DNA from: a virus
IMG/VR virus record: IMGVR_UViG_3300006329_000001
Coordinates: 64,001-128,000 of that record
DNA length: 64,000 nt
Direction: 5' to 3' (one strand)
Of the stretch, positions 1-30,000 are shown piece by piece. The translations under genes were made by a program, and so were the position numbers. The notes under the pieces were generated by a model that was given only the letters and a program-made list of their open reading frames with translations, ran no database searches and was not told the origin of the DNA. Positions within the stretch are counted from its first letter, which is position 1; each line of letters begins with the position of its first letter.

Positions 1-2454
1 TCGCATCTTAGCAGCAGTCTTAATCTTCTTAGATACTGTATTGACAGAAACTGCAGCAGTTAGAGTTACCTCAGTAATATTAGAAGCACCACCACTACCT
101 TGGTTCATACCAGTGACCTGTAGTGACTGTCTATTAGCACCAAAGGTTACACCGATAGTAGGTGAGTTCTTAGTAGATTCATTCTCAATATCAATGTTAG
201 TACCTACATTCCAACCATATCCTGTATGACTGTTAGCACCTTGTGTAACTGTAAGAATATAGTTCTCACTATCAAGAGTAGTAAACTGTTCGTTCTCTGG
301 TAGTGTGAATGTAACGTCACCAGATGATAACTGTTTGTTAGCGAAGGTTTTTATTACAACAAATGATTCATCAGAGATTGACTTAATGGCATGTTTAGGC
401 ATGTCAATAACCAATTCTCCATCCTGTACAGTCTTCGTTGCAAATCTAGGACGTAATCTAACAACCTGTGCTGAAGGATATTCAGCATCAGGAACAGTAC
501 CTTTAGTTAAACCTGTGTCTAATGCAGCATGTTGGTTAGTGAAATCAAATACAACAGCAGTACCAGGATCATTCCTGTTTGCAGTAGTAAATCCAATAGC
601 AGTTTGATCTATTCTCTTAACTCGAATAGAGTTCTGTGCTTTAAAATCTGTATTAGTTGCAGTTATAACTTCACCTGCACGAATATCACTTTCGAATCTT
701 GTACCGAAACCTTCTATTCTATCGTTACCACCTGTTGCATCAATATTAATAGTTGTACCTGGAATAGCCTCTCTAAGGTTAAGTGCTAATGAAGCAGTAA
801 AGATAACAGTAGCACCATCTTTACCTACAACTTGACGAACATCAGATTGCTCATAAGCATATACAGCATCCAATGTATCTAATACTCTACCATCTCTAGT
901 GATAACTTCACCGATTTGGAAATCTCCTGAAACTTGATGTACTAAACAAGAAGCACCTGAACCACTGTAAACAAATGCAGTAGCACCTGACTGACGACCT
1001 TTTAATACTTCACCAGAGTTAACTGTCTGACTGTTTGCAAAGTTCAGAGCAGTAAACATCTGTATATCAAACATAAACAGATTGTATCTACTAGAATCTC
1101 TTTCTAATTGTAGAGTTCTTGCTTTACCAATTAGTGCACCCTGAACACTGTTAGATGCTCCTGTACCAGACCAATTGTCTCTTAGTTCTAATACCTGATA
1201 ACAGTTAGTTACACCCTCTCCAGAGATCTCTGGCCAACCCCAGATGTCATATACCTCACATGACTGTGATAAGTCAATAGGAATAATCTGGTTGTTACGT
1301 CCAACAAAGGTACGAGGTTTTGGTGCGTCAACATAGTTAGCAGCAAGTAGTTCTGTTCTAAAACCTTTTACATATGCTTTACCCTTACCAACCTCTAATG
1401 CCATGTAGTTGCTAGAAGCAACGTTACCATCTGCAGAATTTTGTCCTGCATTGTAAACACCATTATTAAAGAAATCATTTAGATGTTCTCTAGGACGTAC
1501 ATCAAATGAATCAACAACATAATCTCCATGCGTTTCATAAGTACGACGAGCAATAGATTTCTCAATCTCGTTATACTCAGTACGATCAACGAAGTTTTCT
1601 ACAATAGAATTCTTAAGACGTAAGAGTTCTATAAAGTTCTTATCAGTATCATCAGTTATTGGTTTCTTAACCAATGTACATTTGATTCTGAATCTATGAG
1701 AACCTGGTGCAGAATAGTTCGATGAACCAATCGCATTGTCTGTTAGGGCTGGGTCGTCTTCTGGAGTGATGATCGACTCTGATACTTCGAATCCGACTCT
1801 GTAGGAAGGATTATTGGTATACTGATCCAGGATAATGTAAGCAGAAGAAATGTCAACGAAATGCCCACGGATGAAATAAACTCCTTCATTGATATACGCT
1901 GTAGAACCTATTTGTGCTGCATCAACTGGTAATAGTTGAGCGAATGGTGATCCAACTTCGATTAAAGTATTACCGAATGTTAGTTCATTTTCACATATTA
2001 ACTGTTCGTTGTTCTGGAATACCTTTGTGTTTACATCAGATGTAGTATCACCAGACTCAACATACTTAAGATAGAAACTTATATAACCACGAGTTGATTC
2101 AGTAGCAGGGATAGAGAATAGGATCTTAGCTTTAATGCCAGTAGTAAGACCTTCTACAATCTTTCCATGTAACTGTTCCCTATAAGTCTCAACGTCAACT
2201 CCCAAAAACGCTTGCTGAATAAGGATGTTATGTACAGATAGGTCATATCCAATTTGTCCAGGAATGACCATAGCACCTTCTTTAAAGAGGTGCGTTCCCA
2301 TGTTCTCGATCTGATTCTGCAGAATCGATTGCATAGTGGTAAGTTCTCTTGCCTGGATTGGGAATCCTGGTCTAAAGAGTACTCTATAAAAATTATTGTC
2401 TTTGCTGAAATCGTCGAAATACGGAGCGATATTCAGATTGGTATTCTGTGGCAT
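1..2454 (-). CDS. VrlC-like / DUF4815-domain virion structural protein (3' end runs off the window)
   Basis: Not in the ORF track because it is truncated. ATG at 2454 reads MPQNTNLNIAPYFDDFSKDNNFYRVLFRPGFPIQARELTTMQSILQNQIE, the characteristic DUF4815/VrlC N-terminus that follows gp8 in cyanomyoviruses. Confidence 0.85.
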   Translation of the reverse strand, partial: MPQNTNLNIAPYFDDFSKDNNFYRVLFRPGFPIQARELTTMQSILQNQIENMGTHLFKEGAMVIPGQIGYDLSVHNILIQQAFLGVDVETYREQLHGKIVEGLTTGIKAKILFSIPATESTRGYISFYLKYVESGDTTSDVNTKVFQNNEQLICENELTFGNTLIEVGSPFAQLLPVDAAQIGSTAYINEGVYFIRGHFVDISSAYIILDQYTNNPSYRVGFEVSESIITPEDDPALTDNAIGSSNYSAPGSHRFRIKCTLVKKPITDDTDKNFIELLRLKNSIVENFVDRTEYNEIEKSIARRTYETHGDYVVDSFDVRPREHLNDFFNNGVYNAGQNSADGNVASSNYMALEVGKGKAYVKGFRTELLAANYVDAPKPRTFVGRNNQIIPIDLSQSCEVYDIWGWPEISGEGVTNCYQVLELRDNWSGTGASNSVQGALIGKARTLQLERDSSRYNLFMFDIQMFTALNFANSQTVNSGEVLKGRQSGATAFVYSGSGASCLVHQVSGDFQIGEVITRDGRVLDTLDAVYAYEQSDVRQVVGKDGATVIFTASLALNLREAIPGTTINIDATGGNDRIEGFGTRFESDIRAGEVITATNTDFKAQNSIRVKRIDQTAIGFTTANRNDPGTAVVFDFTNQHAALDTGLTKGTVPDAEYPSAQVVRLRPRFATKTVQDGELVIDMPKHAIKSISDESFVVIKTFANKQLSSGDVTFTLPENEQFTTLDSENYILTVTQGANSHTGYGWNVGTNIDIENESTKNSPTIGVTFGANRQSLQVTGMNQGSGGASNITEVTLTAAVSVNTVSKKIKTAAKMR

Positions 2455-4028: not shown

Positions 4029-5879
4029 TTATTCAGGTTCGTTTCTGACGAGGTTTGTGAACTCCTCTTTCCAGAAAGTTGATGTTGCACCAGAGCTACC
4101 ACCTGTTAAGGTATCACTGGTTGTAAATTGATATGTATTACCGTTATTTGTTATATCTTCTAACGTTATTTCTACATATCCTGTAGCATAAGCATTGTTA
4201 AATGAGACAACTTTAGCAGTAACCCCAGTGCTTCCACCAGTTACTATCTCTCCAACGATGTAATTTACATTATTCCAAGATTTAGCAACTACTTTAGAAG
4301 TTGCACTATGTGCTAATCCATCACCAAGTGCACCTGCAACAGATACAGTTGATACTAGAGGAACTAAACTGGAATCATATAACTCATCACCTTGTTGGAA
4401 TAAGGTTGTGTTTTGACCACCAACGGTCTCCTCAATACCATAGAGTGATGATGCAACACCACCATCTAGGCTGATCTCATTCTCATAGTCTGTATCAGTA
4501 TTTACCAGGTCAGGGATTCCATCACCTGCACCATCTAGTTCATCATCATCTTCGAAGGTGAAATTCTCTAATAATCCTAGTGGTGAAGTGAATAGTACGA
4601 TGTTACTATTCTGTTGCTCAATTAAGACGTGTGGTGCTTCTCCAGTTTCTGTAGAACTAGCAACACCCCCAATAAACTGGATAACAGCAGTCTTTTCGTT
4701 AGAACGACCACCATCAATAAATGCCAATTCATCAACTTCGAAGATTAAGAATAACTCTCTAGTTGCCTTATTCCAGTCATATACAACAGCAACCTTATTA
4801 GTTTTATCTTCTTCTACTCTTCTAATTCTATCCGAAACAGTGAAGTTATATCCTGATAATCCAGTATCAACATTATTTGCTAAAGCATCTAAGACAATTC
4901 TCTGGTCATATCTAAAGTTAAGACCTCTAGTACATCCAGTAAAACTAATAGTAGTCTTACCAGTATATCTTACAATTTCTGTCCCTATCTGGAATTTACC
5001 AGAACCAGGATATGCATCAGTAGTCTGAACATATAAGACAGTATCTGCTGCAGCAGCATTTCTTAATAGTGCAGTTACATTATATAAATCACTCTCTAAT
5101 GATGTTCTATTTCTTTGCGTTCTTATTAAGTTAGTATCTCTAGTAAAGATAACCTGAGGAGGAGCAACATAACTACCACCTGGATTGAGGATATTGATCT
5201 CGGTTATAGCACCAAGATTAATCTTTGCCTCTGCAGTAGCACCGCTACCACCACCACCAATTAGCTGTATAATCGGAGGAGTCTCAAAAAACTCACCTGG
5301 GTTACTGATGTTAATTCCAGTAACAGAGCCGAACTGATTAACCTCAGCAATACCCGTTGCTCCGTCTCCACCACCACCTGATATAACAAGAGTAATATCG
5401 TTGAGATCGTAGTTCCTACCTTTACCTTCGATAGCAAGACCAGTTACACCACCCGTGATAGGAACAAGTTCAGCACCTGATCCTCCACCACCTTTTATCT
5501 CAGCATCAGCAGTAAAATATCCATCACCAGGCTGGGTGACTTGGACTGTTTGTATTCCACCAGTACCATCAGTCTTCAGTACAAGATTAGCATCTGCTTC
5601 TACAACACCAGAATCAGGACTTTCTACTTCCAATCTTAATGGATCATATCCTTCACCTGGATCTACCACATCAACAGAAAGAAGATCTCCATTGACACCA
5701 ATATTTGCACGCAAAACAGCATCCCTAATAGGAGTACCACAATTACCAACTACCAATCTTGGAGGATCAGAAACACTATAACCAGAACCAGGATTGGTCA
5801 CGATTACGTCTCTAACACCGAATACGCTATTAAAGACTGGTTCTATTGTTGCACCTGATCCTGGAACTGTTCTTGCCAT
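4029..5879 (-). CDS. Virion/baseplate structural protein with Gly-rich GGGGxGA...PGxGY repeats
   Basis: 616 aa. Repeated GGGGSGA-x-A...V..I.I.NPG.GY...P units, also present in gp8 and the giant protein. Lies between the gp9-like gene and gp8. Confidence 0.7.
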   Translation of the reverse strand: MARTVPGSGATIEPVFNSVFGVRDVIVTNPGSGYSVSDPPRLVVGNCGTPIRDAVLRANIGVNGDLLSVDVVDPGEGYDPLRLEVESPDSGVVEADANLVLKTDGTGGIQTVQVTQPGDGYFTADAEIKGGGGSGAELVPITGGVTGLAIEGKGRNYDLNDITLVISGGGGDGATGIAEVNQFGSVTGINISNPGEFFETPPIIQLIGGGGSGATAEAKINLGAITEINILNPGGSYVAPPQVIFTRDTNLIRTQRNRTSLESDLYNVTALLRNAAAADTVLYVQTTDAYPGSGKFQIGTEIVRYTGKTTISFTGCTRGLNFRYDQRIVLDALANNVDTGLSGYNFTVSDRIRRVEEDKTNKVAVVYDWNKATRELFLIFEVDELAFIDGGRSNEKTAVIQFIGGVASSTETGEAPHVLIEQQNSNIVLFTSPLGLLENFTFEDDDELDGAGDGIPDLVNTDTDYENEISLDGGVASSLYGIEETVGGQNTTLFQQGDELYDSSLVPLVSTVSVAGALGDGLAHSATSKVVAKSWNNVNYIVGEIVTGGSTGVTAKVVSFNNAYATGYVEITLEDITNNGNTYQFTTSDTLTGGSSGATSTFWKEEFTNLVRNEPE

Positions 5880-5880
5880 G

Positions 5881-7383
5881 TTATACCACCACGATGTCTC
5901 CGATCATACCACCATGCTCAGTGCACTGATACTTGTAATTTGTACCAGCTGCAAGTGTCATAGGCACGGTGTATGTTGTTGTTCCTGTTGCTGAACCACT
6001 GACTCCTAAAGTAACTGCAGAACCACCATCTGAAACTCTGATCTCAAATGGATGTGTACTACCAGTTGTATTGTGGAACTTATAAGTAAATCCTCTATAC
6101 ACATAGAATGCAGGATCATCAGCAGTATCAGCTACACCTGGTCCTGTAAATCTATATGCAGAAGTACCATTTGATGATACTGAATACCATAATGTAGGAG
6201 AAGCACCACTTACAACAGCAAAATTCTCATCGAAATGGAATGAATGACCTTTATTAGAAACATCTCCAACTGGGAGATTCTCGTCCACATTAACAGTCAG
6301 TGTATTGCCAGCCATAGCAGTTGTACAACCAGTACCACCAGCTATAGTTAATGTAGTAGTAGCTGCTGCAGCTGCAGTAGATCCTGAATCCCCCGCAACT
6401 GTTTGGAATAAGTTCTGAACGATATTTGGAGCATCGTTAGTGATAGTAATAGCACCTGCGTTGAGGTTAGTGCTAATACCAGTACCACCTAAGAAGTTAA
6501 GACTATCAGTAGTTACAGTAGCTGAAGTTTGTCCATTATCTGCACCGAATGTCTCAAAGAGATTCTGATCAGGATCTCCAAGAGCTCCTGTCATATTGAT
6601 TGTTAAAGTGTCTCCAACCAATGCAGTACCAATGTTTGTACCACCAACAATATTAAAAGTGTCGTTAGGAGCAGATGCAGTGGTTGTACCAGTATCACCA
6701 GTAAATGTCTCGAATAAGTTTTGTGTCGTTCCACCGCTACCACCTGTCCCTTCCTCATCATTAGCAGGTGACCACTTCTGGGTTGATGCAACCCACTTAA
6801 GAACTTGTCCGTCTGAAGGACCACCACTCACAGTGGTATCAACATCACTTAATAATGAAATACTACTGTTTTCTGAGATAAGAGGTACCCAAGCAGCAGC
6901 ATGAGCGAAATATCCTTTACCTGTATCATGTGCATGAGCAAACATACCATGATGATCTGTGGCATTTGGTAATCCTGCTTCAGTGGCGTATGGTGCATAC
7001 CATTTAAAGTATCCATCATCACCATCAACATATGTGTATGCAGATCCAGATCCACCTGCCCAAAGTTTAATATCTCCTGTCCCAGTTTGCTTGATTACTA
7101 TGTCATCAGTACCGTCACAAACGATCTGATTAGCATTTGTATCAAGATTAGAACTTAAAATATTATAGTCACCTGCTCTAAAAGCACCACTGGGACTAGA
7201 AGTCCACTTTAAAACCTGTCCATCAGTCGGTGCTCCACTGATGTCCACTTGGATTGTAGTATCGTTACCTAATGCTGTGTAAAGCTCATCAAAGTTGGCA
7301 TTTACCTTGATGGCACCATCACGCAAAGTATCACCAGTGCCATCATTTGCAGAAGATCCAATACCAACTGATTGTTTAGCCAT
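5881..7383 (-). CDS. gp9/gp10-like baseplate wedge/tail-fibre connector with C-terminal cupredoxin-like domain
   Basis: N-terminus MAKQSVGIGSSANDGTGDTLRDGAIKVNANFDELY is the T4 gp9/gp10 N-terminal signature. Three internal QNLF(E/Q)T..D.G repeats. C-terminus has HPF...YQCTEHGGMIG. Confidence 0.75.
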   Translation of the reverse strand: MAKQSVGIGSSANDGTGDTLRDGAIKVNANFDELYTALGNDTTIQVDISGAPTDGQVLKWTSSPSGAFRAGDYNILSSNLDTNANQIVCDGTDDIVIKQTGTGDIKLWAGGSGSAYTYVDGDDGYFKWYAPYATEAGLPNATDHHGMFAHAHDTGKGYFAHAAAWVPLISENSSISLLSDVDTTVSGGPSDGQVLKWVASTQKWSPANDEEGTGGSGGTTQNLFETFTGDTGTTTASAPNDTFNIVGGTNIGTALVGDTLTINMTGALGDPDQNLFETFGADNGQTSATVTTDSLNFLGGTGISTNLNAGAITITNDAPNIVQNLFQTVAGDSGSTAAAAATTTLTIAGGTGCTTAMAGNTLTVNVDENLPVGDVSNKGHSFHFDENFAVVSGASPTLWYSVSSNGTSAYRFTGPGVADTADDPAFYVYRGFTYKFHNTTGSTHPFEIRVSDGGSAVTLGVSGSATGTTTYTVPMTLAAGTNYKYQCTEHGGMIGDIVVV

Positions 7384-12000: not shown

Positions 12001-15000
12001 TTTGTAGTATCTTTGTAGATATCATATCCAGACCACTGAGAAGTATTATTCTGATCATACAATGTACGTTTTACATACTCACGAATTCTAGTTGTGTAGA
12101 ATAGTAAGTGCTGTCTAACAACAGTTGGGAATGCGATAAAGTTACCTTCACCATCAAACCAAGTGTTAACCAACTTAAGCATACCTTGGTTACCACCTGT
12201 ATTCATGTCATACAATAATGCATGAATCATATCATCAGCAAATTGCTTGTCTGCACCAGTACCAGGATATTGGTTAACAGTTCTATCGTATGCCTTGTTA
12301 ACAATTGCGTGCTTATTAAAGAGAAGATGTCTTGCACACTTCTTATCAGACTTAGATCCACCACCAAGTGTATTGAGTAATACATCGAATAATGTATCAG
12401 TTGCAGACGTTACATTATAACAAGTAAATGTCTGATAGTTTTGGTTAAATCTGAATGGTGGAATCTTCTCGATAGCATCCAAGTGACTTCCACCACCACC
12501 TTTAGCAAGATAGATTGTGTCAATGATGATTTGCATCAAAGATTCTATATTTGCTGCAGCAGTTGGACATGTTGTATTCCAATCTCCTGCATCAGCACCA
12601 TCAGTATGGAATGTGATTGATACATCACGTTCTGCCATTTCAGGAGCGTACTTAACTGGCCAAATCATTGGTAGAGATTTAGTAATCGTACCATCAGTTA
12701 GAGCTGCAGGTGTGTTAATTGCAGTAGTATAGATTGCCATCGAAGTTGTGATAGCAGATGCAACATCAGCACACTTAGGATTATTAGTGTCAGCAGTAAT
12801 TACATAGTTACTTGCACTATATGGTTTAAAGTCAAGATCATTGTAGAATGATTGCTTATACTTGTGTCCACTTCTAGGATATGTCTTCTGTGCAGTATTA
12901 CCATCTCTTGAGCATGTGAATGTCAAGGAGTTAGGTGCTAACTTAACAGATGTTCCAGTGAATAGATCATGTGAACCAATTGTTAATGCTAAGTATCCAG
13001 TTGCAGGATCGTAAGTAGCATTAGTTGGTGTGTAAGTGACGATTGGTGATTGACCAACATCAACAGTAATTGTGTTACCTGACTTAGCAACGATAGGCAT
13101 TGGTCTATCGAAAGCAGGATCCTTAGCACGAGGATATGTATGATTAGTTGTGTAATCATCTTGTGCACAAGTGAATGTTAATGAATCAGTTCTGATCTTA
13201 ACGTTTGCACCTGCTCTAACAACACCACCAGAAGTTGCAGATACAAATGAATGAGTTGTAGTGTTAGTAGAAGGAATATTTTCTAGAACTTGTACATCAA
13301 ATGTATTTGTTCCTACGTTAGAAATAGTCAACCAGTTTCCACTTGCAGGGTCACTTGATCTTGGATAAGAATGATTACCTGAACCTTGTGTACATGTGAA
13401 GGTTAATGAATTATCAGCAATGTTAACTTTGTCTCCATTGTTCCATCCATGACCATTAATAGTTAAGGTCATTACACCTGTATTTGGATCATATGCAGCA
13501 CCAGTAACTGTCTTCGCTGCACTTGGTCCTTCTAGTGTGTTTGATCCAATATCTAATACTAAGTGTCCAGTACCTGCATCATATGTTGCGTTAGAAACAT
13601 TAAAGTCTACAAACGGTGTTGAGGTTACGTTAACAGTTATTGAGGTTGATGTGTATGCAGTTATGGATAATGTTTGACCAGATGCATAATCAGTAGATCT
13701 TGGATATCCATGAACTGTGGAGTTACCATCAAAATCACAAGTGAAGTTTAATCCATTATCATCAATCGTGATTGTGTTGGAATTAGTTAAGTTGTGAGCA
13801 GAAGCAAAGGTAAGAATTAATTCACCAGTAGTACCATCATATGTTGCTCCATTAGGTGTCAACTCAGTAGGTGCACCACCAACATTGACACAGTTAGTTG
13901 CAGCACTTACAAATGTATGATCGTATGCACCACCAGTCATTACTGCACCAGGTAGAGCACTTACAAATTGATGCTGATAATTACCACCAGTGATTAGAGC
14001 ACCAGTTTGAGCACTTACAAATGCGTGAGTGTACTGATCGTTAGGACCAGAAGCACCAACTTGTAATGTAACTACACCTGAAGGATTCTGTCTTGTAATA
14101 CCATTGGTTGTAGCTGATACAAACTGATGAGTGTAATCACCACCAGTGTGGATAGCACCTGCAGTTGCAGATTTAAAGGTATGCTGATAATTACCACCAC
14201 TAATTACAGCACCAGAAACTGCATACTGGAAGTAATGAGTTGTGAGGTTGGAGATAGCACCAGATCCATCATTTACATCTAATGTAATTGTTCCATCTTG
14301 CTTATGAAGACCATTAGCAGCGAATGATTGGAATTGATGTGTGTACTGATCATTAGGACCAGAGATACCAACTTGTATACTGAAGTTATTGTTATCAACG
14401 AATGTTACTGGTAACCACTCATCATATACTGGGTCAGTTGTTCTTGGATATGAGTGATCGCTAGAATTACCATCTTTATTACATCTAAATGTAACTGCAT
14501 TAGGAGCAATCTTAACCATGTCACCTGCATAAGTTACTCCATTAGGAGAAGCAGTTACAAAATTATGAGTTGTAGTATCAGAAGATATACCAACATTAAC
14601 TTCGAATGTATCGTTAGTTACGTTAGTAACTTGTAGCCACTTATCGAATGGATAATCAGATCCACCAGGAGCAGCAGAACCATACTGTCTAGGATATGAT
14701 TTAACAGCACTGTTACCATCTAATCCACATGTGAATGAAATTGAGTTAGCAGCAATCTTAATTCTATCGTTATTCGCAAAACCATGATTAGTGATAGTAA
14801 CAACCATCTTACCATCAGCAGGTGTGTAGGTTGCACTTTCGATAGTATGTGTTGTATGACCCGCTAAACCATGGTTGTTCATGGTTAGTGTCATTACACC
14901 AGTAGATGAGTTGTATGCAGCACTTGTTGGTGTATGTGTTGTATGTCCAACAGCATCAATATTAATTGCTGTATTCCATGCAGGGTCAGGACCATTAGGT

Positions 15001-18000
15001 GCTGAAGCACGAGGATAAACGTGATTTGTTGCTTGACTATCTTCGTCACACTTAAAGACTAAAGAACTTGTTGCTATCTTAATGCTCTCTCCAGTTCTAA
15101 ATTCATGAGCACCAATTGATAGAACGATGTTACCAGTATTAGGTGTAAAGACTGCATTGTGTACATCATAATTCTTAATAACAGATGCACCAACATTAAC
15201 TGTGATTGTAGTCTCAGTAGTACCGATAATCTGAACTGGTTCACCACTAACAGGATCAGTTGTTCTTGGGTAAGTTTTAGTTGAGTTATTTCCATCCATC
15301 ACACAAGTAAAGGATAGAGAATTATCAGCAATCTTAATATTAGTTCCTTGACTTAATGTATGGTTACCGATAGTTAAGATTAAGTTACCAGTATTAGGTT
15401 CGTAAACTACGTTAGTAGGAGTAAACTTCTTAATCTTAGAAGTACCAACATTAACTGTAAATGTATCATTAGTCTTAGAAATAATAGGTAACCATTGTCC
15501 ACTTACAGGATCAGTTGATCTTGGATATGTGTGGTTACTGTAGAAATTATCCATTGAGCAAGTTAATGTCAATGAATTATCAGCAACGTTAATCTTGTCT
15601 CCTACACCAAATCCATGTCCTGAAACTGTTAGAGTTAATAGACCTGTACCTGCATCATAAGCAGCATTAGTTGCAGTATGAGTTGTAGATGCAACATCAA
15701 CAATATCAATAGCAGTATCGAATGAAGGATCAGCACCATAGTTAAGTGCTAGAGATTCATTTCTCATTACCTGAATCGCTAGATCTCTTGCATAGTTACA
15801 TATCCAGATTGCTTCAGTAGCATGAGTTAGACCTTCATTAACATAGTATTCAGCAGCACGAACAATCTTGTTGTTACCACCATGACGTAGGTTCCAAACC
15901 ATAGCGTCAAGGAAGTCACTTAAGTCATGTACACAGTTGATATTTCCACCAGGAATATTAAGTGAAGGATATTGTACTTTAGCAGCAGCAATAGTTTCTT
16001 CAGCAATAACACGGATATTTCTTTCGATTACATCAGCAGCGTTAATGAATCTATCTTTAACAGCATTACGTTCGTAAGTAGAAACGTCAACGTTGTCAAA
16101 GGACTCACTACCGCCACCAGTTATACCATCGTCATCTCCTGTATCTGCATCTGGGTTATAGATGTAAAGGTTCTCACGACCAAATCCATTACGGATAGTC
16201 ATAATTGCAATTTCAGTTGCAATCTTAAGAACACTAATACCTGCTTCATCTTCACCAGGAGCAACTCCAACATTACATGTAATTTGACCAGTCTGTCTCT
16301 TAAGTCCATCTGTGGTAAATGATACAAATGAATGAGCAGAAGTATTAGTAGAAGGAACAGTTGTTAATACCTGAACACTGAAAGTATTAGCATCAACATA
16401 AGTTACAGGTAACCATGCTTTGTATGCAGGATCTTGAGGTCTTGGATATTGCTTAGTCTGTGAATTACACTGTAATGAAAGAGCATTTTCAGTTATCATT
16501 ACATAATCATTTGCCTTCGTAATACCATTAGAAGTTGCAGACTTAAATGTATGTGCAGTTACGTTAGTAGAAGGAATCTCTGCTAGAACCTGAACATCAA
16601 AAGTATTATTAGTTACGTTAAGAATAGGTAACCATGAATTTGAGGCAGGGTCAGTAGAACGAGGATATGTATGATCAGATACGTTGTTGTCTAACATACA
16701 TGTAAATGTTAATGAGTTATCAGCAATCTTTACACTATCACCAACACTAAATCCATGGTTAGTGCAGGTCAATGTCATGATACCTGTCTCTGGATTATAA
16801 GTAGCAGTTTCTACAGTATCCTGTGACTGACCAGTAAACGGATGACCATTTAATGTAAATGCTACAACACCTGTATTAGGATCATAAGTAGCACCTGTTG
16901 GTGTATGAGATGTTTGTGATACCTCAGTAATTTCTACAGATGTATTATAAACAGGATCTGTATCACGAGGATATGAATGCTCAGTTATATAATCATCTCT
17001 ATCACATGTAAATGTTAATGCTTCTTTCTTAAATCTGAAACTCTGTCCAGTAACTAATTGGTGTGCACCAATAGTCATTTGTAATGCACCTGATACAGGG
17101 TTGTAATCAGCAGCAGATACGTTGTAGTAAACTAAAGGAGTTGTACCAACATTAACTGTAATTGTTGATAATGTATATGCAGTAATAGCAAGAGACTTAC
17201 CATATGCAGGATCACCTTTACGAGGATAAGTATGATTGTCCTCATTCTGGTTCATTTCACAAGTGAAGGTTAAACCATCTTCTGCAATCTCAATAGTATT
17301 AGAAGAAGTTAATCCGTGACTTGGAATTGTTAAAATTAAGTTACCAGTAGAAGGTTGATAAACTACGTTTTGTGGAGTATGTTGTCCACCACCATTATCA
17401 GTAACAGCATTAGTTGCAGCAGTTACAAATGTATGTCCATAGTTACCACCTGCTTCGATAGCATTTAGAGATGCTCTAACGAATTGGTGTGTATGCTGAC
17501 GACCATTTAACTGAATAAGATTATCAGTCTCAGGATCAAGATATAATGCAGCAGCTTCATATGTCTTACTGTTACCACCCTTTCTAAGGTCATGTGCAAC
17601 AGCCTTTAATATATCAAGAACATCATCTACACAATTCTGAGCACCATCAGGAACAGTGAAGTTAAGGAACTTAGAAAGATCGTTCATTGTATGAACTGCT
17701 TCCCAAGCAATTACATTAGCGTTCTTCTCAATCAAGTGAGCAGCATCTAATACTCTGTTATTAGAATCATAAGCATCAGGATTATAACCCTCTGGGTCAA
17801 TAGTGATTGTTGGATCTCTATAAACTGCAAGGTCTGTGTACTGCATTGGATAGTAGTCATCCTGATATACAGTTGGAATATCTTCTCCAAGACCTGCAGC
17901 AGTTTGACCTTGAGGTAAGAGAGTGTTGTTGATACACTTCTTACATAACATTCTTACATATTCATATACATCCAATACAGCACTTAGTTCATTGTCAACC

Positions 18001-21000
18001 GAATAAAGTTCGTTATTAGCGTTGAGGAACTTACTGGTGTTGTACTGGATAGCATTAGTTCCACCTGTAACCAAGTCAGCAATAATAGCAGGAAGAATAT
18101 AAGTCTTGATTTCGAAAGTGCACTTATTAGGATTAGCGTTAGGGTTTTGATAGAAGTCATAAGTTGTACTATTAATATTTGCTTGGTAGGTTGCTTCTAA
18201 CCAACCAACTGCTTCAGCAGCGATTGCATCACGGTTCTGCCAAATTAGATCACCTGCATCTCTGAATCTCTGACCTGTAGGTCCAAGAACATCTCCAATA
18301 TCATCACATAATTTAACAATAGCATCCTGAATCTCTTGTGAAGCAGGAGATGAGAAGTTGTTAGGTATACGAAGTATATCAGTATACTGAGTACCACCAT
18401 AAGTCTTAAGATCTGAACTTGTAGTTGTAATTACATAATTACAAATTGGTGCTAATTCTCTATAGGTGTAAATTGACTGAAGAATCTCATTAGCGATATG
18501 CTCTAATCCTTCGTATGCAGTTAAGTAGTTTCTAGCAGCAAGTGTACTGTTATAGTTACCACCATAACGTAAATCTTGGATAACACCTTTAAGAATAAAC
18601 TCTTTAGTATCTCTTAAACAGAAACTTGTACCCTGTTGAGGACCAACTCCATCAGCAGTATCACCAGGCATCACCAAATCAGGGAATTTTGCCTTCATCT
18701 TCCAGACTGCAGTTTCAGCAATCCATGCTCTGTTAAGTTCTAAAATATCTGCTGCTTGACGGAAAGCATCTCTTGATATATCAACTTCCTCAACAATAAC
18801 TTCACGAGTATCATAATCAACTTTAGTTGCTTGAGAAGCAGAATTAGTAGTACCAGTTAGAGTTGCATATGCTTCATTATTACTCATAATGATAGGCAAC
18901 TCATTACTCATTGAGAAGGTAATACCAGTTGTAGATGTTGGGAATAGAGTAGAAGGTGTAAAGGATGAAGTATACTTAGACTCTCCACCATAGAATACAA
19001 CGTTATCAATATATCCAACATAGTTGTTACCACCGTTCCACTCAGCACCAATAGTCATCTTACGTTCACGGTAAGTATTAGTGTCTGTGTAATCAGTACC
19101 AACTTGTGAACCATTAACCCAAAGTTTGAGTATTTGACTGGTTCTAGTCATGGCAATGTGATACCATGTATTAGCACTCATACCATGAGCACCACTAATC
19201 ACATCAGAACCATTAATCTTATACTTCAGGTTACCTGAATCAAAGTAAAGACTTGGAGAATTAACTTCTGAAGCACCACTTGTACGCATATCAAGTAGGT
19301 ACTTAGTAGTGTTCATTGCAGTTGTAGGACGTACCCACATCTCAATGGTAAAGTCTGATGTGCCAAATGCAGGTATAGTGGATAATGCATATGAGAGGTA
19401 TGCTCCTGAATCAAGTTTCAGGGACTTCGTTCCACTACGTTTTTCTATAGCTGTTAGTCTTGCTGAAGCAGGATATATGGTAGTAGCATTAGTAACTGCA
19501 CTCTGGAATGTATGTGCATAACTACCACCAACTTCTACAGCATCTGCGATTGCTCTTACAAATGTATGTGGAGTAGTATTAGAAGAAGGAGCAGAACTTA
19601 ATACGTTAATAGTAATAGTTCCATCTTGTCTAGTAATGTTGTTAGAACCAGAAGTTACATATGTGTGAACATATTGCTCATCTGCAGGAGATTCACCAAC
19701 CTGAACACCAATATTATTATCATCGATTACAGTAACATCTAACCACTGATTATCGACTGGATCAGTGCTTCTTGGATATGTGTGATTACTACCATTACCA
19801 TCTTTAGTGCAACTGAATGTTAATGAATCGGTAGCAATCTTGATTCTGTTACCAGTCTGCATTCCATGGTTAACAATACTAAGTTTAAGAGTACCGTTAG
19901 AAGGTTCATAAACTGCATCAGATGAAGTAAATGTTGCTTGTACACCAATAGAGGTTACATTAATCTTAGTATTGTATACAGGGTCTTGTCCACCTGAAGG
20001 GTTACCTGAACCTGCAACTCTAGGATAAGAGTGCTCTGTAGCATCACTATCTTGAGTACAAGTAAAGATCAATGAATTTGGTTTTAATCTAATACTGTCA
20101 CCAACATTAAGATTATGGTTACCAACATTAAGAACAGTAGAACCTGTGATTGGATCATAATCTGCACCAGTTACTTGTAAGTATGTCTTAGGAGTAGCAC
20201 CAACATTAACTGTAAATGTATTAGTTGTAGTTTTTAAAATCTGAAGTTGTTGTCCTTGTCCAACTGGATCATCAGCACGAGGATAGTCATGGTTGGATGC
20301 ATTACCATCCATTGCACAACTAAATCTCAATGCATTAACAGCAAACGATACTTTATTACCTACAGAATAACCATGGTTATTAAGAGTAAGAGTTAACTGT
20401 CCAGTATCAGGATCATATGTTGCTCCTGTAGGAGTTATATTAACGTTAGATCCACCAGGATTATTAGTAATCTTAGTATTGGTGACATACTCTTTAAGTT
20501 TAAAGATACCAGTAACAGTTTGAGCATACAACCATCTTAAACCAGAGTTTGCACCCTTAAGTGGGAATGATGCACCAGTAGTTGCTCCTATAATTGTGTC
20601 ACCAGGAACGAAGAATCCAGTACCACCTCTATCCTTATAAGCAAACTTGTAAACACGAATGTTCTCATTCTCTTGATAAGTACCATCTGAGATAACTGAG
20701 AGTGCATTGATATTATCAAGGTTACCACCTGCCTTAACGGAATTAGCAATAGCAGATACAAATGTATGTGTGTAGTTACCACCAGAAATTACAGCACCTG
20801 CAGTTGCAGATACAAATGTATGAGCATCAGTATTAGAGATAGCACCCTGTCCACCGTTCACATTAACTGTGATTGTGGTTCCTGTTTTAGAAATGATAGG
20901 AAGTGCAGTGTCATACGCATAGTCAGCACCACTAGATGTGTTAGCACCATTAGCACGAGGATATAATCCTTCACCACCACCGTTGTAAGCACACTGGAAT

Positions 21001-24000
21001 CTTAATGATTCAGTGGCAAGTTTAATACTTGTACCAACTTCTAAAGTGTGTGCACCAATAGTTAATTGCAAATCACCAGAAGTTATATTGTAATTTGCAG
21101 CAGTAACATCATGGTTAACGAGAGGAGTTGTACCAACGTTAATTGTAATTGTTGTATTTCCACCACCAACAGCAGTAATAGGGATCTGCTTTTCATACCA
21201 TGGGTCAGTAGGACGTGGGTATGTCTTTTGAGCAGTATTACCATCCATACCACAAGTAAATGTTAATCCATAAGGATCAATTCTTACAGTGTCAGATGTT
21301 GTTAAAGTATGTGATCCAATGGTAAGAACCATGTCACCAGTTGTGGCATTATAAGTTGCACCTGAAGGAGTGAACTGATCACCACTAAATGCAGTAGTAG
21401 CAAGATTTGCTAAAGTATCAATAGAAGATGCTACGTTTGCACAGTTTGTTTCATTCTGGTTAGATCCTGAAGCATAATCTGGATCATAGTAATGTGCAAC
21501 ACTAGAACTCTCTAGATATGGAGCAGAGTATGTTGTAGGATCATTAAGGTTATAACCAGTTTCACTAAGAGACTGACTGTAGAGCAAGTTTCTCATTGCT
21601 CTCTTACATAATTCTTTTGCTTTATTAAATGCAGTTATCGCTTCTTCTGTTTCTGGAAGACCATTGTTAATTGGAATTCCATTTGAGTCAAAGAACTTCT
21701 TAGTAAAGGTTACAATTGCATAATTACCATCACTTTCTAGGTCATCTGCAATAGCATCAATAAAGTATCCTGTATCTCTATTACACTTGATCTCTTTAGG
21801 AGTATAACCTGCATCAGGTGTAGTAAGATCAATAAGATCACTTAGTGACGCTGCTTCGAGGACTTCCTTAACATTGGTCCAAAGAGTTGTAAGAGCAGCC
21901 TGAACGTCAGCACAATTGTCAGCACCGTTGTTAGTAGTATTGGTACCTGCTGATCCATAATTACCGCCAGGATTAGGGTCAGCAGTAATACCAGTATTGT
22001 TATTAGGTCCACTAGATTGCTCATTGTATTTTGTATAAACGACAGCATCAATAGTTTCAGATCCACTTAAAGTGTTCTGAATAGCATCCTGCATATAATC
22101 TACACATCTCTGGAATCCCCAAACAGTTTCAGTTTCTTCACCAAGAAGATATGCTAATGATGTGCCATCAGGGAAGTACTTTTGTAAGAACTTACGAGTA
22201 TAAACTGTACCACCCCATCCTGTATCTCTTGAGAGAGCATCGATGAGATATCTCATATCTCTCTTACATTTAGTAGCACTAGGAATTGTAGAACTAGGAT
22301 ACTGAACAATCATGTCCTGATATGCCTTAGCAATAATCCATTCGCTATTTTTTTGTATTAAACGATATCCATCTTTAAATCTACCATACTGAGTAGTTTC
22401 TGTTTCTCCAGTGTAGTAGAAATCTGGATAGTCGATTGCAATCTGAGAGGTTGCAAAATCGATAATTTCTTGTCTATTATTTCTAATGCTTCTAGCAGCA
22501 TCTTTATATCTGTTAATAGCGTCAGTTTCAGCATTACCGTAACTAACATTGATAGAACGAATCTTATCATTATTAGTGATTGTACCACCAGATAAGTTGT
22601 TATATTCGATCTCAGTAGAACGTACTGACTCATAATCAAGGAAGTCAGCGTTAATACGATCTGCAGCGTCAGTTAATGTAGTAGGAGTAATAGTTGTCTC
22701 AGAGATATTATCAAGAATAATATTCTGGTTAGATAGAGATATAAGTCTCTCAAATACTAATCCGAAGAATGTAGAACCTTTGTTAATGATAAGAGTATCT
22801 ACAACGTCACCTAACTTGATATCACCTGAAACAGTAGCATTTAACGATCCAGCAGTAATTGTTTCACCATCAACAAAATTAGCAACAGATTTAGCTACAA
22901 AGTACAATACAGGTGGTTGTGCTTCAGCATCTACTCTAACAACTTCAGCAAGAGCACCTGAAATTCCACCAGTTAGTTGATCTCCTTCTTCGAAGGCTAC
23001 TGCAGTTGCAAGGTTGATAGAACTGATAGGATCTCTATATGGAGAAATTCCAACTACTTTAGCAGCAATATTTGATGCTGAAGAGTATATAAAGTCATTT
23101 AAGAAAATAGCATAAGCACCAGTCTCATATTCGGCAGTACCAGAAGTCTTAGAAAGAACTAAGAAGGAATCAGTATTACCATCAAGGTCTAAGTTAGTTT
23201 CTTCGACTTTAGCGGTTTCTCCACTTAAAGCAACCTTAGTAACGATTTCTTCGAACTCAAAGATAGTTTCTTGACTTAAAACATCAATGGAACCAATTAA
23301 AGCACTAAATCCAGTTCTAGAAACGTCAATTCTTTCATTGAGTTGATAAGGACCAGATGTGATGTCAATAACATCAATACTTGCTGCACCAGTAGCAACA
23401 ACTCTAGAATTGGCATTAGAAGTGAATCCAGAAACAAAATCACCGATTTGTGGGAAAATACCACCAATAGTGTTTAGATTAAGTCTAGTAATCTGTAATA
23501 TCTGTATTTCTACGTTTCTGTAAACAACCTTAGAATCTGGTCTTGGTGGTTCAGCAAATACGATCTGATTACCAACAATTTGATATGCAGTACCAGGTGA
23601 CTGGATAACACCGTTTAAGGTGACCAACATCTGATTTTCTTTAATTATTACCTGTTCACCTTCTACACTAAGTGGGAATCCTTTAGTAGAACCATCAAAC
23701 TGATCTGAGATGTTATCTAACTTCTTAACGATAGATGTTAAGATTTCCTCAGAGTTTGTTAGTCTTTTCTTTCTGAATAGAACTTCAGAGTTGTTAAATG
23801 TAGAATATATTGGTTGAGCAGCACCAAATGATGTAATTTGGTTAACATTGGTATATTCGTTAATATTAACCTGTTTTGTAAACTCAGTACCAATCTTACG
23901 TCCAGAAACGTCCTTACCACCAGTCAGTTCTAACTGACCGAACATATTAAATCCTGCAGGGTGATTATTCTCTAATACCTGCTTCTTCCAACGGTTAATT

Positions 24001-27000
24001 GGAATTTGTGACTTAATAACATATGAGAAGTTCTGATAGAAGTAAGAGTCCTGAATCTTTTGTACGATCTCAGAAGGTTTACCAACGTCATCAATAAATC
24101 TACCAGATGTTCTTGTAAGAGCATCAATATTAAGAATACCTCTTGCAATGTTAACATTGTCAATAATACCAGATGCACGAGATATAACACCTTGTACTTT
24201 ACCACCTACAACAAATTCACCACTTGGATTAACAATCTTAAGAATTTTAGGACCAATTTGCCAACCGTCATTAATAGAAACAGTACCGAAGGCATTTGCT
24301 AATTCATAAGATTCACCTTGGAATACTTCTTCAGATTCTAAGAATCTTGAGGTTTCTACAACAGCAGTTGCTTGACCACCGAATACCTCAGTAAGAAGAA
24401 CCTGTCTTCCATCACCTTGTGTTAAGAAGGTAATAAAGTTACCAGAATCAGCATCAGCAGGTGTTAACGCAAATCTAAGTTGATCAGATTCTAGTGAGTT
24501 AGCATCACCTGCAATAGCATAGTAAGTCTGTGTAGATGACAATGAAGTCAAACCAACTGAACTTGGTTTTGGTAGTTCACCAATTGTAGTACCGATATCT
24601 TCTGCACGGAACTGTACAGCAGCACCAGTTGTAATACCATGTGGGAAGTTAAACTGTAGATAGTTAAGGTCTAAGTTAACAACGTATGTAAATTCTGATT
24701 TTAGAGTAACAACTGGTTCTGAACTATATCCTGCACCTGGATCTTTAACGATGATCTCAGACAGTCTGTTGTTTTTAACAACTGCCTCAGCATTAGCACC
24801 AGTTCCACCACCACCTTCGATTACAACAACAGGAGCAGATGTATAGCCAGCACCTGGATTGGTTATCTTGATCTGTGATAGTATTGAGGTATTAAAGAGT
24901 TGTAAGTTAACTGGGAATGCAATCTCAGGACGTAGAGTATAGTCATGAGAGTAACCATAACCAAATTCATTGTTCTTAAGAGTTTTAATCTTACCAATCT
25001 GTGTACCAGTTAAGAATATAGAAGCACCTGTACCTTCAGCAGGTATAACAACAGTTAATTCTGCACCAGAACCAGAAAGTGTAGGTCCAAGAATTCCTGG
25101 TATACCATCTACATCGATAACACCAGTTGTGTATCCAGAACCAGGATCAATAAGAGCAACATCACTGATTGTTCCTGAATCAGTCTCAGCATCAATAGTA
25201 ACTGTGATGTTAGCTAGACCACCTTCACCATCACCTATAATAGGAACCTGTGTATATACGCCAGGTGCATATTCAGTACCACCGTTAGTAATTCTTATCT
25301 TCTCAATCTTACGATCAGATGCAACCTCTGAAATAATTGGTAGTTTCTTATAGAATCCACCTGGAGAGATCAACTTAATTGTGTTAATAGGTCCAATCGC
25401 TTTCTTAGAAGTTGTGGAATAGTATGAATTAGGTTTATCCTGATCATCCAATCCAATCATTGCAGTATTAAATTCTGGTTCATGCTCTAATGGGAATCTG
25501 AACTCAGTATCACTAATAATCGCAGCAATATTAAATGTACCATCATAAGGAGTCTTAATAACATCAATAAAGGACTCAGAACCAACTGGAGAGTTAGTAG
25601 ATAGTGTTCTACTAGGATCAAAGTAGTATGTGATGTTAGTTACTTCACCACCAACTGTAAACTTAACTATAGGAACTTCGGTAGAAGAAGATTGACCAGG
25701 AATTCCTTCACGTTCGATAACGTTAAATGAGTATTCTAGTTTAAACTGGTTATCTTGAGAGAATGATAAGTAGTAGTCTTGGTTAGAAGCATCACTCATA
25801 TCAAAGATATAAGAGTGGTTTCTTACCAACATTAGAGTTGGGTGCTTAGATGATATCTTAACACTAGCAATAGCAGAATTATCAAATAAAGGATCAGATA
25901 AAGCAGTTGCCCTCATTCTATAAGTAAAGTCTCTTGATGAGAAGACTTCTTCTACGAAGAATGATCCATCAAACTGTGTGCCCTGGAATCCCTCAACAAA
26001 GAGGATATCTCCTGCACTAAATCTATGTGCACTAAGAGCATTACAGTATATAAGATCAGTCCTAGTCTCTCCTGTGCGAATAATATCCTTATTAAGAGTA
26101 ACTACTAATTCTATTTTCTTAACTGTAGTTACGCCATTAATTTGACCAATTTTAGGAAAATCTGTCTTTGGCCCTGCCGTTACACTACCACCAAGCGAAA
26201 TTACATCACCAACTATGAAATCAGATCCAGGATATACCTCAAGAATCTTAACTCTATAATCACCAGGATCATAAGGTCTGAACCTAGCATATTGTGATAA
26301 TGCATCATACTGTTGCTGCCATGTCCAAACTACAGTACCATCAGTTGCAGTACCAGAAGTATGTGTAGGTGCAACAGTACTAGAAACACCTGCAGTAGTA
26401 CACTTATATCTCTGTCTTCCCCAGTAGACTTCATCATTTAATGAGAATGACTTACTAGGACTCCATAAAGGTATAGTTGGTTTTGGCCAAGCATGTTCTA
26501 TTAGATCAACTTCTATAGGACCAGCAACACTAATAAACTGCCATAAAACACCACCATCGGTTACTATACCAATCTCATGAGTAGGTGCAGTAACACCAGA
26601 TGTAGCATTGTTAGTTGCTTTGTATATCTTACCTGCGTTGTAAACCTGTGTATCAACTGTATATGCTTTACTTGTTACCCACTGATCTTGTGTTCTTGCT
26701 TGTTCGAATACAACATCATCAATAGTATTCTCCTCACCAATATCATTTTGATATAGATCAGTAGTATCATTACTAAATGTACCATATATCTTACCAACCT
26801 TATACTTATTACCAACACCAGGTGTGTCTATTGTACCAGTTGGAACCTCAACAATAGTACCAAATCCCTGAACAATACCATTCTCATTTGTCTGCTGTAG
26901 AATTGTTCCTTTAGTAAATTTAATATCTTGGTTAAATGTAAATTCCTTAACTAAGTCAATCTTCTGGAATCCTGCATCTCTGACGTAGAACTTCGCCATA

Positions 27001-30000
27001 GGAACTGCAGTTACCTTAACTTTTCTACCAAGTGGTGAAGGTATTGTAGAAGTCTTAGATGCAAATGTATGACTAGCACTTGTAAAGTTGTAACTACCTG
27101 GTGCAAGTTGTGATATAACATCAGAGTAGTCAAGAATCTGTAAACCAGATGAACCTTGAGTCCATACTGTTACAACAGGATTACTTAAAGTATTAATGTT
27201 AATCCCTGATGTTTCTGTAAACTTAAGTGCTTTAGTATGAGTAGTTTCAGAGAATGCACTATAGTCACCTCTCTTATCATGCTGACGATCAAACTTAATA
27301 ATGTTAACTCTAGAGTCAGTAGAAGTGATTCTATAACGTTCAGTAGGAAGAGTAAATGTTCCACTCCATACTGAATTAGGATCAATAACAAAATCATCAA
27401 TAGTACCCAATAAGCAGTTACCTGTAGCAGGTGTTGTCTTATTAGCACCAACATATACATCATTAAGACCAATATTTGTTACTACAGTTGCAGTACAAAC
27501 CTGTGCACCATCAAAGTAAACAGAATACTTATATGAACCTAAGGTTGGTTCTTCCTTAACTATTGCCCAATGATGGAATGAAGATGACCCCATCGCAGTC
27601 CAATATGTACTACCAACTGATGCAGTAGTAGATCCACCACCACCCTGAGGTGCAATGGTCATCTCAATCTTACCTAGATTAGGACTAGAAGCATTACCAT
27701 CAACAGTAACAACAAGACTATTGCCAGTTGCATCATCAATAGTAAACATCTCAACCTTCGGATTGTTCGAAGCATGAGATGGTTCCATGTAAGACCATGA
27801 AGATACAGTCCAATTAGTTGTTATTCCAGCTCCTGCTGCCTTCATATAAGCAGGACCACCAGAGAACTTCAGAGCACCTGCACCAAACTTAAATTCTGAG
27901 GTATTATGAATAGCATATGCAGCATTTGAGAAACTTGTAGTTACAAGTGCTTGTTTTGTGCTATCTTCATCTAAATCATTCTCATTCTCAAAACGAGCAA
28001 CATATGTCTGTACTGGAAGTTGCTTATTACATGGAATAATAACATCACCAGAGTTATCTACTTGGTGACTCCATGCTGACATACCAATATCATCAGTATC
28101 TTCGATATTAGTACTCTTAAGAAGACTTCCATCATACTTAAAGTTCATTGCAACGATTTGACGATCATTATCCCAATATTTCAGATCAGCAACGACACTT
28201 ACATTACCAAAGACATCTAAATTGATACCTGCATGTTTAACTGCTTCGAAATTGCCACTAGGAGCAATAATCTTAGAAAACTCGTATGTTGGACCTGCTG
28301 CAGGATTGGTAGAAAGTTGATCAATAGGTATCTTAAAGAATGCTATACCATAATTCTTAGTTCCATTCCACATATCACATATGAAGAATAGATCGTTCCA
28401 CTCATCAAGAATGAACTGTGGTCTCTGTACACTACCACCTGCTATAGCAAGTCTCTTAGTATAGTTAAGTTCGATGTTTGCACCATCGTACTCCATTTCA
28501 CCGAATAATAAGTCATTATTATCAGCATCAACACCAGTCCAAAGCATTTTATTGTTTCCAATGAACTTAAGTTGGTTCATTGACTCACCTTCGTCATCAG
28601 AAGCAAATTTACGCTTCTCTACAACGTCACCTAGGTTATTAAGTTGCATAACCCAGATATCGTTAGGATCTGGAGAGTTAGTATCAGTCCAACCGCAAAT
28701 ATAGACTCTTTGCTCATCATCTAGGTGAATATCACCTGCATAGTCTCTTCTAGCAGATCCAGAGACACCTGCGATCTCTTTTTGCCATCTGACAATACCT
28801 TCAGGTGCATTTGCATTATTAAACCCAGATTCGTACTTAGCAACTAAAATATCGGGATTATAAGTCGCAGTTGTCTGAGATTCGGTTTCACCGATAATAT
28901 AGATCAATTCATTCTCTTCAGAAGTCTCATCAAGGTACATTGACTTCCAACGAGCAACTTTATTGGATGCAGAAGGTAAAAGTGTTCTATCCCAAACTAA
29001 AACACCCAAATCAGTAAATTTAGCAAGGAATGCAGAAGAATCACCATTAACTTGAGTTAATTCACCACAAATGTAGATATAACGGTCTGTGGTTATCTGA
29101 GAATCGAATATTTGGATTTTATCGGTATCTTCGTAATATTCAGATAACCAATAGTAAGTTTTCTTGTATTGTTGTGGATGAGAGACTCTAATCTGTGGAG
29201 GAGCGTCTACATCGTATCCAAAACCACTATTAACGATATTAACGCTTCCAACCTTACCAGTTGTCTCATCTAGAACAATATTAAAGTTAACGTCTTGTCC
29301 AGAAGAGGTAATGATCTCATAAGTCGGTGGAATCTGTGTATTGTAACCAATACCCGATTGTGTTACTGTAATAGTCTCAATACCAGTAACAACTGACATA
29401 TAGTAACGCTTGTTAGTATTATCAGTAATAACTCGACTGTTAACAATAATTTCGTCTTGTGCGATAAGTTCATGGTCTGTAGCAGTGGTGATTTTACCGT
29501 ATGGGATGTCATTAATGACTTCCTTTGTATATGCAGCAATGTCTCGGCCCTGGACCGACTCAATAATGGCAGAAGCTCCGAACCCGTCTGTACCTGTGTT
29601 ATCGAAGAATAAAGTGTCATCAACCTGATAAGAAACACCTGCGTTCTCAACAACGAATCCATCAATCTGTGCAGACTCGAATTTAGTGGTTGTATCAACC
29701 TCAATATCAACTCTTGACTCTGCTGATACTCTAGGGAAGTAATCATAGATCTGTAGTGCTGCTTCTTCTGTTATTGCTTGTTCTGTTGCAATTTCAGCAG
29801 GAGATATGATTGCATCACCATCTAAGTCCTCAATTTCGAAGATAAGAAGATCACCTTCTCTTTCAGTCACAAATGAGTCTGCCTGTTGGTTTGGTTGACG
29901 CTCAATATCAATATCAACGTTTACATATGGATCTCTGAATCTTGCAACGTCTTGAGGGATGTTTTCTTGTGTTGCAGTTTGTGATAAGTTCCATGTATCA

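Follow-up and report, generated by a model that had tools for sequence, protein, structure and literature searches.

Probable self-nested barrel units in a giant gp7-position baseplate protein of a cyanophage: sequence grammar, relatives and predicted structure

A giant open reading frame in the gp7 position

The DNA analysed here, referred to as the window, comprises 64,000 nucleotides (nt) of the virus record IMGVR_UViG_3300006329_000001 (positions 64,001 to 128,000) and is 94.6% identical to cyanophage P-RSM6 (Kyanoviridae; host Prochlorococcus NATL2A). Its minus strand contains a giant open reading frame (ORF) of 8,576 amino acids (aa), of which the region aa 4456-7291 is considered in the following (nt = 34742 - 3(aa - 1)). 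This region very probably consists of four self-nested trees of one small barrel, which are inserted in loops of helical repeat domains. The nesting is supported by the sequence grammar, by comparative genomics and by predicted structure.

The giant ORF occupies the gp7 position of a P-RSM6-like cyanomyovirus. It follows homologues of gp25 and gp6 and precedes those of gp9/gp8 (gp25-gp6-[gp7]-...gp9/gp8), and it carries a match to a wedge domain. The P-RSM6 homologue (8,573 aa) is likewise preceded by gp25-like and gp6-like wedge genes and followed by a gp9-like connector, and the P-RSM1 homologue carries the annotation ‘similar to gp7’. PHROGs places the ORF in giant ‘virion structural protein / baseplate wedge’ families, and Pfam reports YHYH, the lectin-like Laminin_G_3, a weak summed Phycobilisome signal and a marginal Baseplate_wedge match (PF23786, aa 696-739, 28.7 bits versus a cut-off of 27). 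For the barrel unit itself, no named family was found in Pfam or PHROGs, and a self-contained unit matched no Pfam family at E<=1. A sequence search of the PDB with the whole region returned nothing meaningful, the best hit being a MinD protein (E 0.025).

The first-pass annotation had counted about 18 YPR repeats in window 12870-21375, and 18 YPR motifs are indeed located at aa 4508-7288 (nt 21221-12881); a further, 19th YPR at aa 734 is unrelated to the repeats. Strands of the HxFVSA type occur in the same number (18). Each unit was divided into four elements: a hairpin with Y-x3-(T/S)G and a His (a), the strands bearing the LTFTC...YPR..DP core (Y), a TITVNVG-type strand (d) and the HxFVSA hairpin (h). 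All four elements occur in 18 copies each within aa 4440-7310. Hidden Markov models (HMMs) for a, Y and h gave 18 matches each and no copy elsewhere in the 8,576 aa or in the other frames of the window (six frames). One set of a, Y and h HMMs matches every one of the 18 units, and the modelled units share structural templates, so that host and insert are homologous, i.e., the insertion is one of the unit into itself.

The elements are distributed over four clusters (Table 1), in which they do not form simple tandem units. The d strand is missing behind four cores (4906, 5924, 6576, 7288; units are referred to by their cores), and as many d strands are orphans (5042, 6153, 6818, 6890). Similarly, no head stands before three cores (6099, 6765, 7203), and three heads are orphans (5953, 6610, 7054). 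The irregular units thus balance exactly, the orphan elements matching the incomplete cores in number. Units split mid-domain, in which an ‘a’ head is followed by a whole unit and then by the remainder, had been noted before and are found at aa 5953-6150, 6610-6815 and 7054-7230. Likewise, the pile-up of closing strands described at ~13895-14240 corresponds to six HxFVSA strands at aa 6836-6947 (nt 14237-13902), which follow each other in tandem with an 18-residue period and a GG turn.

Clusters 3 and 4 interrupt helical domains. One helical repeat had been reported to break at NLIQLNG and to resume ~420 aa later, a second one to be interrupted by ~950 aa. Both interruptions were recovered: the first host is interrupted behind ‘NLIQLNG’ (aa 5747, nt ~17502) and continues from aa 6163 (nt ~16256), and the second interruption comprises 959 aa (aa 6334-7292). 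In a relative with flanks of 50-56% identity (L028), the sequence is contiguous through both host domains, without cluster 3 (415 aa) and cluster 4 (959 aa). The family assignment of the hosts is weak: Phycobilisome (PF00502) attains 31.3 bits as a sum across the C-terminal half, each individual stretch staying below the gathering score, and helical domains taken one by one reach 12-13 bits (E 0.09-0.18). Helical repeats with a C..D......GGN motif are seen in window 12483-22500 (minus strand).

Element order and predicted barrels

The element strings were subjected to a parser with two rules: each unit has four elements in one cyclic order, a-Y-d-h, and only complete units may stand between elements. 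The strings of all four clusters parse completely as balanced brackets with a maximum depth of 5, in line with the recursive insertion ‘like matched parentheses’ that the first-pass annotation had proposed. Inserts themselves host inserts, the parse depths being 2, 3, 3 and 5. Three loops take insertions (a-Y, Y-d and d-h), and a unit in the second tree of cluster 4 takes up two inserts. Units 5924, 5839, 7203 and 7013 start with h and unit 7288 starts with d-h, which amounts to circular permutations in sequence. Upon shuffling of the tokens, 392, 53, 3 and 0 of 20,000 strings parse for clusters 1, 2, 3 and 4, respectively; chance therefore does not account for the element order. In the 12 units with a distal hairpin, the similarity of the cores (a and Y) correlates with that of the assigned hairpins (r = 0.37), a value reached by 475 of 20,000 random re-assignments, whereas sequential, non-nested pairing of the first unit with the first hairpin yields r = -0.05. 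The nested assignment ranks 2nd among all 288 within-pile hairpin assignments. The correlation is modest and points in the same direction as the nest.

Structures were predicted using AlphaFold2 for clusters 1, 2 and 4. Model 1 covers aa 4440-5100 (clusters 1 and 2; aa = model + 4439) and is based on an alignment of 37 natural orthologue rows, taken from IMG/VR and from metagenome contigs; its mean predicted local distance difference test (pLDDT) score is 75.2 and its predicted template modelling (pTM) score is 0.45. Model 2 covers aa 6340-7300 (cluster 4; aa = model + 6339) and is based on 24 alignment rows (mean pLDDT 76.0, pTM 0.40). To read the domain composition, the models were aligned to PDB structures using VIA-align, and the terminal residues of each aligned range were noted. 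The best barrel templates are the FCCH domains of Uba1/Uba6 (Z 8.1-8.2), followed by the endosialidase barrels from phi92 and K1F (Z 7.0-7.9, identity up to 20%); ferredoxin-reductase-type FAD-binding (FNR-type) barrels and domain 2 of EF-Tu/eIF2-gamma align with Z 5-6. A Foldseek search with the whole of model 1 gave multi-domain matches without meaning (TM <= 0.12).

Single templates align 55-87 residues, yet they span 113-534 model residues and skip whole units. The bracket string of cluster 4 was written down before model 2 existed, and the expected ranges in Table 1 derive from this string. In 13 of the 14 modelled units (8 of 9 in cluster 4), the aligned span ends where the parse predicts. 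The ranges of the first tree nest strictly within one model: 13-546 encloses 97-528, which encloses 181-510, then 261-477 and finally 287-402. An interrupted barrel thus still seems to form one fold in the models, its span skipping the inserted units, and the interrupted helical hosts are contiguous without inserts in L028. In the hairpin pile, the first three hairpins close units 6576, 6491 and 6406 according to the parse, and the last three open units 7288, 7203 and 7013; correspondingly, VIA-align ranges end at positions 510, 528 and 546 of model 2 and start at 581-610.

Table 1. Features of the giant ORF in the window, with element parses and aligned barrel ranges
Feature	Residues	Nucleotides (window)	Strand	Description
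Giant ORF, gp7 slot downstream of gp25 and gp6 homologues	8,576 aa	9012..34742	-	PHROG 701/baseplate wedge matches; Pfam Baseplate_wedge; synteny in P-RSM6, P-RSM1
Cluster 1	aa 4458-4676	20715..21371	-	2 units; a/Y/d/h = 2/2/2/2; aYd[aYdh]h, depth 2
Cluster 2	aa 4770-5095	19458..20435	-	3 units; a/Y/d/h = 3/3/3/3; aYd[aY[aYdh]dh]h, depth 3
N-terminal part of helical host domain interrupted by cluster 3	aa 5655-5747	17502..17780	-	weak Pfam Phycobilisome, 13 bits
Cluster 3	aa 5748-6162	16257..17501	-	4 units, two h-first; a/Y/d/h = 4/4/4/4; 415-aa insertion in helical domain; h[haYd]aY[a[aYdh]Ydh]d, depth 3
Remainder of cluster 3 host domain and N-terminal part of next helical domain	aa 6163-6333	15744..16256	-	54% identical to contiguous L028 stretch
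Cluster 4	aa 6334-7292	12867..15743	-	9 units in two trees; a/Y/d/h = 9/9/9/9; 959-aa insertion in next helical domain
Cluster 4, first tree				aYd[aYd[aY[a[aYdh]Ydh]dh]h]h, depth 5
Cluster 4, second tree				dh[h[haYd]a[aYdh]Yd]aY, depth 3, branched
Pile of six h hairpins and one orphan d strand	aa 6833-6960	13863..14246	-	element order; parse; ends of VIA-align ranges
Remainder of second host domain after cluster 4	aa 7293-7420	12483..12866	-	56% identical to L028, directly adjoining there
Unit 4508	model 1, 15-234			to last hairpin 4659, unit 4594 skipped
Unit 4594	model 1, 102-215			up to first hairpin 4641
Unit 4820	model 1, 326-654			to hairpin 5077
Unit 4906	model 1, 412-633			to hairpin 5059
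Unit 4989	model 1, 494-601			self-contained, own hairpin within barrel
Unit 6406	model 2, 13-546 (>20 rows)			expected 17-546
Unit 6491	model 2, 97-528			expected 102-527
Unit 6576	model 2, 181/185-510			expected 187-509
Unit 6765	model 2, 261-477			expected 265-470
Unit 6683	model 2, 287-402			expected 294-399
Unit 7013	model 2, 600/610-701/704			expected 600-700
Unit 7203	model 2, 581-893			expected 585-889
Unit 7126	model 2, 735-838			expected 739-837

Potential ligands are conserved in three elements per unit (window 12870-21375, minus strand): the His of a in 17/18 units, the Cys of LTFTC..D (Cys and Asp in Y) in 18/18, a His three residues before YPR in 12/18 and the His of the h hairpin in 18/18. 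In unit a7054/Y7203 the a-His is absent, while the assigned hairpin retains its His. If the conserved ligands make one metal site, the metal would tie the distal hairpin to its barrel.

Two further stretches adjoin the clusters. Between cluster 2 and the helical repeats lies a concanavalin-A-like lectin/glucanase domain (Laminin_G_3, E 7.8e-18; window 18990-19390, minus strand, aa ~5120-5250), which would fit a carbohydrate-binding region. The ~90 residues between clusters 1 and 2 (aa 4680-4765; window 20440-20710, minus strand) are 42-46% identical in distant relatives and are nevertheless predicted at very low confidence (pLDDT ~30); the lone hint is a weak match to SH3_YKFC_2nd (E 0.01).

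Relatives, proposed chain path and alternative explanations

According to tblastn, the module is present in 353 cyanomyovirus records, and 64 loci of relatives were retrieved from IMG/VR and metagenomes. Among close relatives, the number of units at one and the same site differs (0, 1, 9 or 14). In L016-L030, cluster 2 is absent and a single aYdh unit replaces clusters 3-4. Relatives of 9,151-9,152 aa (G004, G005; loci L045, L047, L048) contain ~536 extra residues at window aa ~6806-6812: in the 9,152-aa relatives, the cluster comprises 14 a, 14 Y and 14 h and parses at depth 8, degenerate hairpins included (see below), with five extra units and five hairpins forming one balanced block in the Y-d loop of the 6576 orthologue. 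In a more distant relative (L013, ~33% identical), a single cluster holds 18 units whose order differs; its string also parses at depth 8 when such hairpins are included. Shuffles of the L048 and L013 strings parse in 0 of 5,000 cases each. The number of h equals that of Y in every cluster and in the relatives with 1, 2, 14 and 18 units. In the contig LULN01000317.1 (L046, metagenome), the giant gene lies in two frames of 1,427 and 2,253 aa, which reflects a frameshift or, more likely, an assembly error.

Aa 6439-6823 of the window protein are 41-50% identical to the cluster 3 stretch of close orthologues (e.g., L007 1478-1849), and aa 6893-7229 are ~40% identical to it. Since clusters 3 and 4 have paralogous multi-unit blocks, whole nested blocks have been duplicated. 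At the DNA level, direct repeats in the window are only 60-80% identical; the duplications are therefore old, and recent recombination within this genome was rejected as an explanation. The recombination-driven expansion inferred earlier is thus supported in part, by whole balanced blocks that differ among relatives and by the paralogous blocks of clusters 3 and 4. The sequences point to old duplications with lineage-specific gain or loss of balanced blocks and not to ongoing recombination within this genome. In the Prochlorococcus phage MED4-213 (L068, NC_020845), the same barrel and helical modules occur in a tail fibre protein of 3,763 aa (CDS at locus 16686-27977), outside the gp6-gp7 context; the module seems thus to move between different virion proteins.

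These observations can be accommodated by the following chain path. Each unit would be a six-stranded beta-barrel of ~85-105 residues built from a, Y, d and h in fixed cyclic order, and complete barrels would be inserted into the a-Y, Y-d and d-h loops of other barrels. The chain would run outward via unfinished barrels to the innermost one, which is farthest along the chain, and then close the barrels in reverse order; such a path accounts for the orphan heads and d strands as well as for the pile of closing hairpins. Cluster 4 would form two excursions side by side, one of which is branched. Each cluster has both of its ends in one host loop and must therefore protrude, as a closed excursion, from the helical core. 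Of the hairpin or branched stalks suggested in the first-pass annotation, the topology is retained (cluster ends meet in one host loop and one unit hosts two inserts), whereas their geometry goes beyond models with pTM 0.40-0.45; we infer a rod or branch geometry and exposure at the baseplate periphery.

The piled hairpins, with their regular period and turn, and the simple a-Y-d units, which seem complete at first glance, could also be read such that YPR units fold on their own and the 18-residue HxFVSA repeats assemble into a beta-solenoid or sheet of their own, as a fibre-like spine resembling the His-containing repeats of T4 fibre proteins. This explanation is very improbable given the equal numbers of h and Y per cluster and in relatives. 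Furthermore, the self-contained units have the hairpin inside the aligned barrel (494-601, 287-402 and 735-838), and the barrel alignments of distal units extend to a specific distal hairpin. Every hairpin marks the end or the start of another barrel's alignment, so that the hairpins in the models do not constitute a separate solenoid. The first-pass annotation had itself named an HxFVSA solenoid, or YPR units complete without a distal strand, as outcomes at odds with nesting; in the models, hairpins seem to close individual barrels and distal units align up to their distal hairpin. Of the checks that it had proposed, HMM-based balance of the bracket string, AlphaFold segments and repeat numbers in orthologues gave results consistent with nesting. 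Alternatively, the hairpins might complete barrels between chains, for example of neighbouring wedge copies, or in a non-nested order, resulting in a strand-swapped lattice. Counts alone do not separate completion in cis from that in trans, a baseplate contains several copies of its wedge proteins, as established for T4, and the models are monomers. Nevertheless, the orphan a and d elements are pairable in nested order only, the monomer models close 13/14 barrels in cis and the sequential assignment gives no core-hairpin correlation, all of which makes a lattice improbable.

The nest could finally be an artefact of prediction and aligner, the units being beads on a string with the extra strands as linkers; shallow alignments, low pTM, middling Z and the reliance on alignment ranges speak for this possibility. 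It is nonetheless highly improbable, because the bracket string derived from sequence predated the models and predicted ranges within ~5 residues for 13 units, the orphan heads, cores and d strands balance exactly, and whole balanced blocks are gained or lost in natural relatives. Several points do weigh against nesting. The strand-to-barrel assignment relies on the end residues of structural alignments alone, the models derive from shallow alignments (37 and 24 rows, some paralogous; pTM 0.40-0.45), four of five cluster 4 models scored lower (mean pLDDT 61-68), and template Z values of 5-8 are within the range reached by unrelated small barrels. Unit 7288 has no matching range in the VIA-align rows of model 2. 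The shuffle is a crude null, as tandem units combined with a separate series of hairpins would pass the parser too in the simplest cluster, and the weight therefore rests on clusters 2-4 and on the orphan balancing. In distant relatives, automatic tokenising alone under-detects h and the strings stay unbalanced: the window-trained HMMs missed copies of both a and h, iterated HMMs recovered a and Y and still missed degenerate h, and a regular-expression fallback was dropped due to false positives in helical domains. Degenerate h hairpins were hence added by eye, two in L048 and four in L013, by an H-x-aromatic (once Cys) motif that mostly follows right after a PSTN-type linker.

The most likely function of the nested barrels is surface binding or a spacer role on the baseplate periphery, a proposal based on the fold likeness to the endosialidase barrel and on the neighbouring lectin-like domain, which may equally well prove right or wrong. 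A glycan-binding role is suggested solely by that fold likeness. A bolder and rather unlikely generalization would regard self-insertion as a general growth mode for cyanophage virion appendages. The resulting trees would be branched, mechanically interlocked and deeper than any reported domain nest, with barrels stapled by the distal hairpin, perhaps via a His/Cys/Asp/His metal site, and would provide host-surface (glycan) binding modules whose number and branching tune adsorption.

Comparison with known systems

Insertion of a domain in another domain is common at one level and rare beyond two. T4 gp7 comprises ~1,030 residues and is not known to contain such barrels or helical repeats. The cyanophage protein resembles it in the gene position after gp25/gp6 and before the gp9/gp8 homologues and in the weak N-terminal Baseplate_wedge match; the nested region is a cyanophage-specific addition relative to T4 gp7. 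A literature search of limited coverage retrieved no description of such a self-nested build for phage particles. The relatives with 0, 1, 9 and 14 units at the same site provide a natural series on the origin of nests, which also bears on folding when barrel closure waits for hundreds of residues and on the role of projecting barrel trees on a baseplate that recognises Prochlorococcus or Synechococcus. For annotation, tandem-repeat tools and domain callers will mis-segment such proteins if they do not permit discontinuous domains.

The best structural matches to single units are the endosialidase barrels (phi92, 4hiz 255-340; K1F, 3gvj 424-508) and the FCCH domain of the ubiquitin E1 enzyme (4p22 215-295), with Z 7.0-8.2 and 2.1-2.8 A rmsd over 76-83 residues at 7-20% identity, where Z <8 may indicate no more than a shared arrangement. 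The nearest named ESM-Atlas cluster to a barrel unit is a viral E1_FCCH (score 0.91), and a self-contained unit has no sequence match to E1_FCCH (PF16190) in Pfam at E<=1. FCCH and endosialidase barrels are themselves inserted domains in their host proteins. Unlike the cyanophage units, they are single domains without self-nesting.

The closest known case is Si3 of the beta' subunit (RpoC2) of cyanobacterial RNA polymerase. It consists of eight sandwich-barrel hybrid motif (SBHM/HABAS) domains, of which SBHM-2 to -5 are composed of distant segments in the crystal structure (PMC10895346), and a 2026 survey of 2.7 million domains highlighted it as the most complex example, a six-level recursive insertion with branching nodes (PMC13114784). 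In both systems, copies of one small beta domain are inserted in each other and the whole set resides in a loop of a host domain. The folds differ: the cyanophage unit is a predicted six-stranded closed barrel of the FCCH/endosialidase type and not an SBHM, and there is no sequence relation. The cyanophage protein, in contrast to Si3, is a virion protein with 18 units, some of them circularly permuted, in four separate nests. Its depth is five barrel levels (six with the helical host) and eight in two relatives, and the number of units varies strongly among close relatives. Here, the same nesting principle would use one barrel to make up ~2,000 residues of a virion protein.

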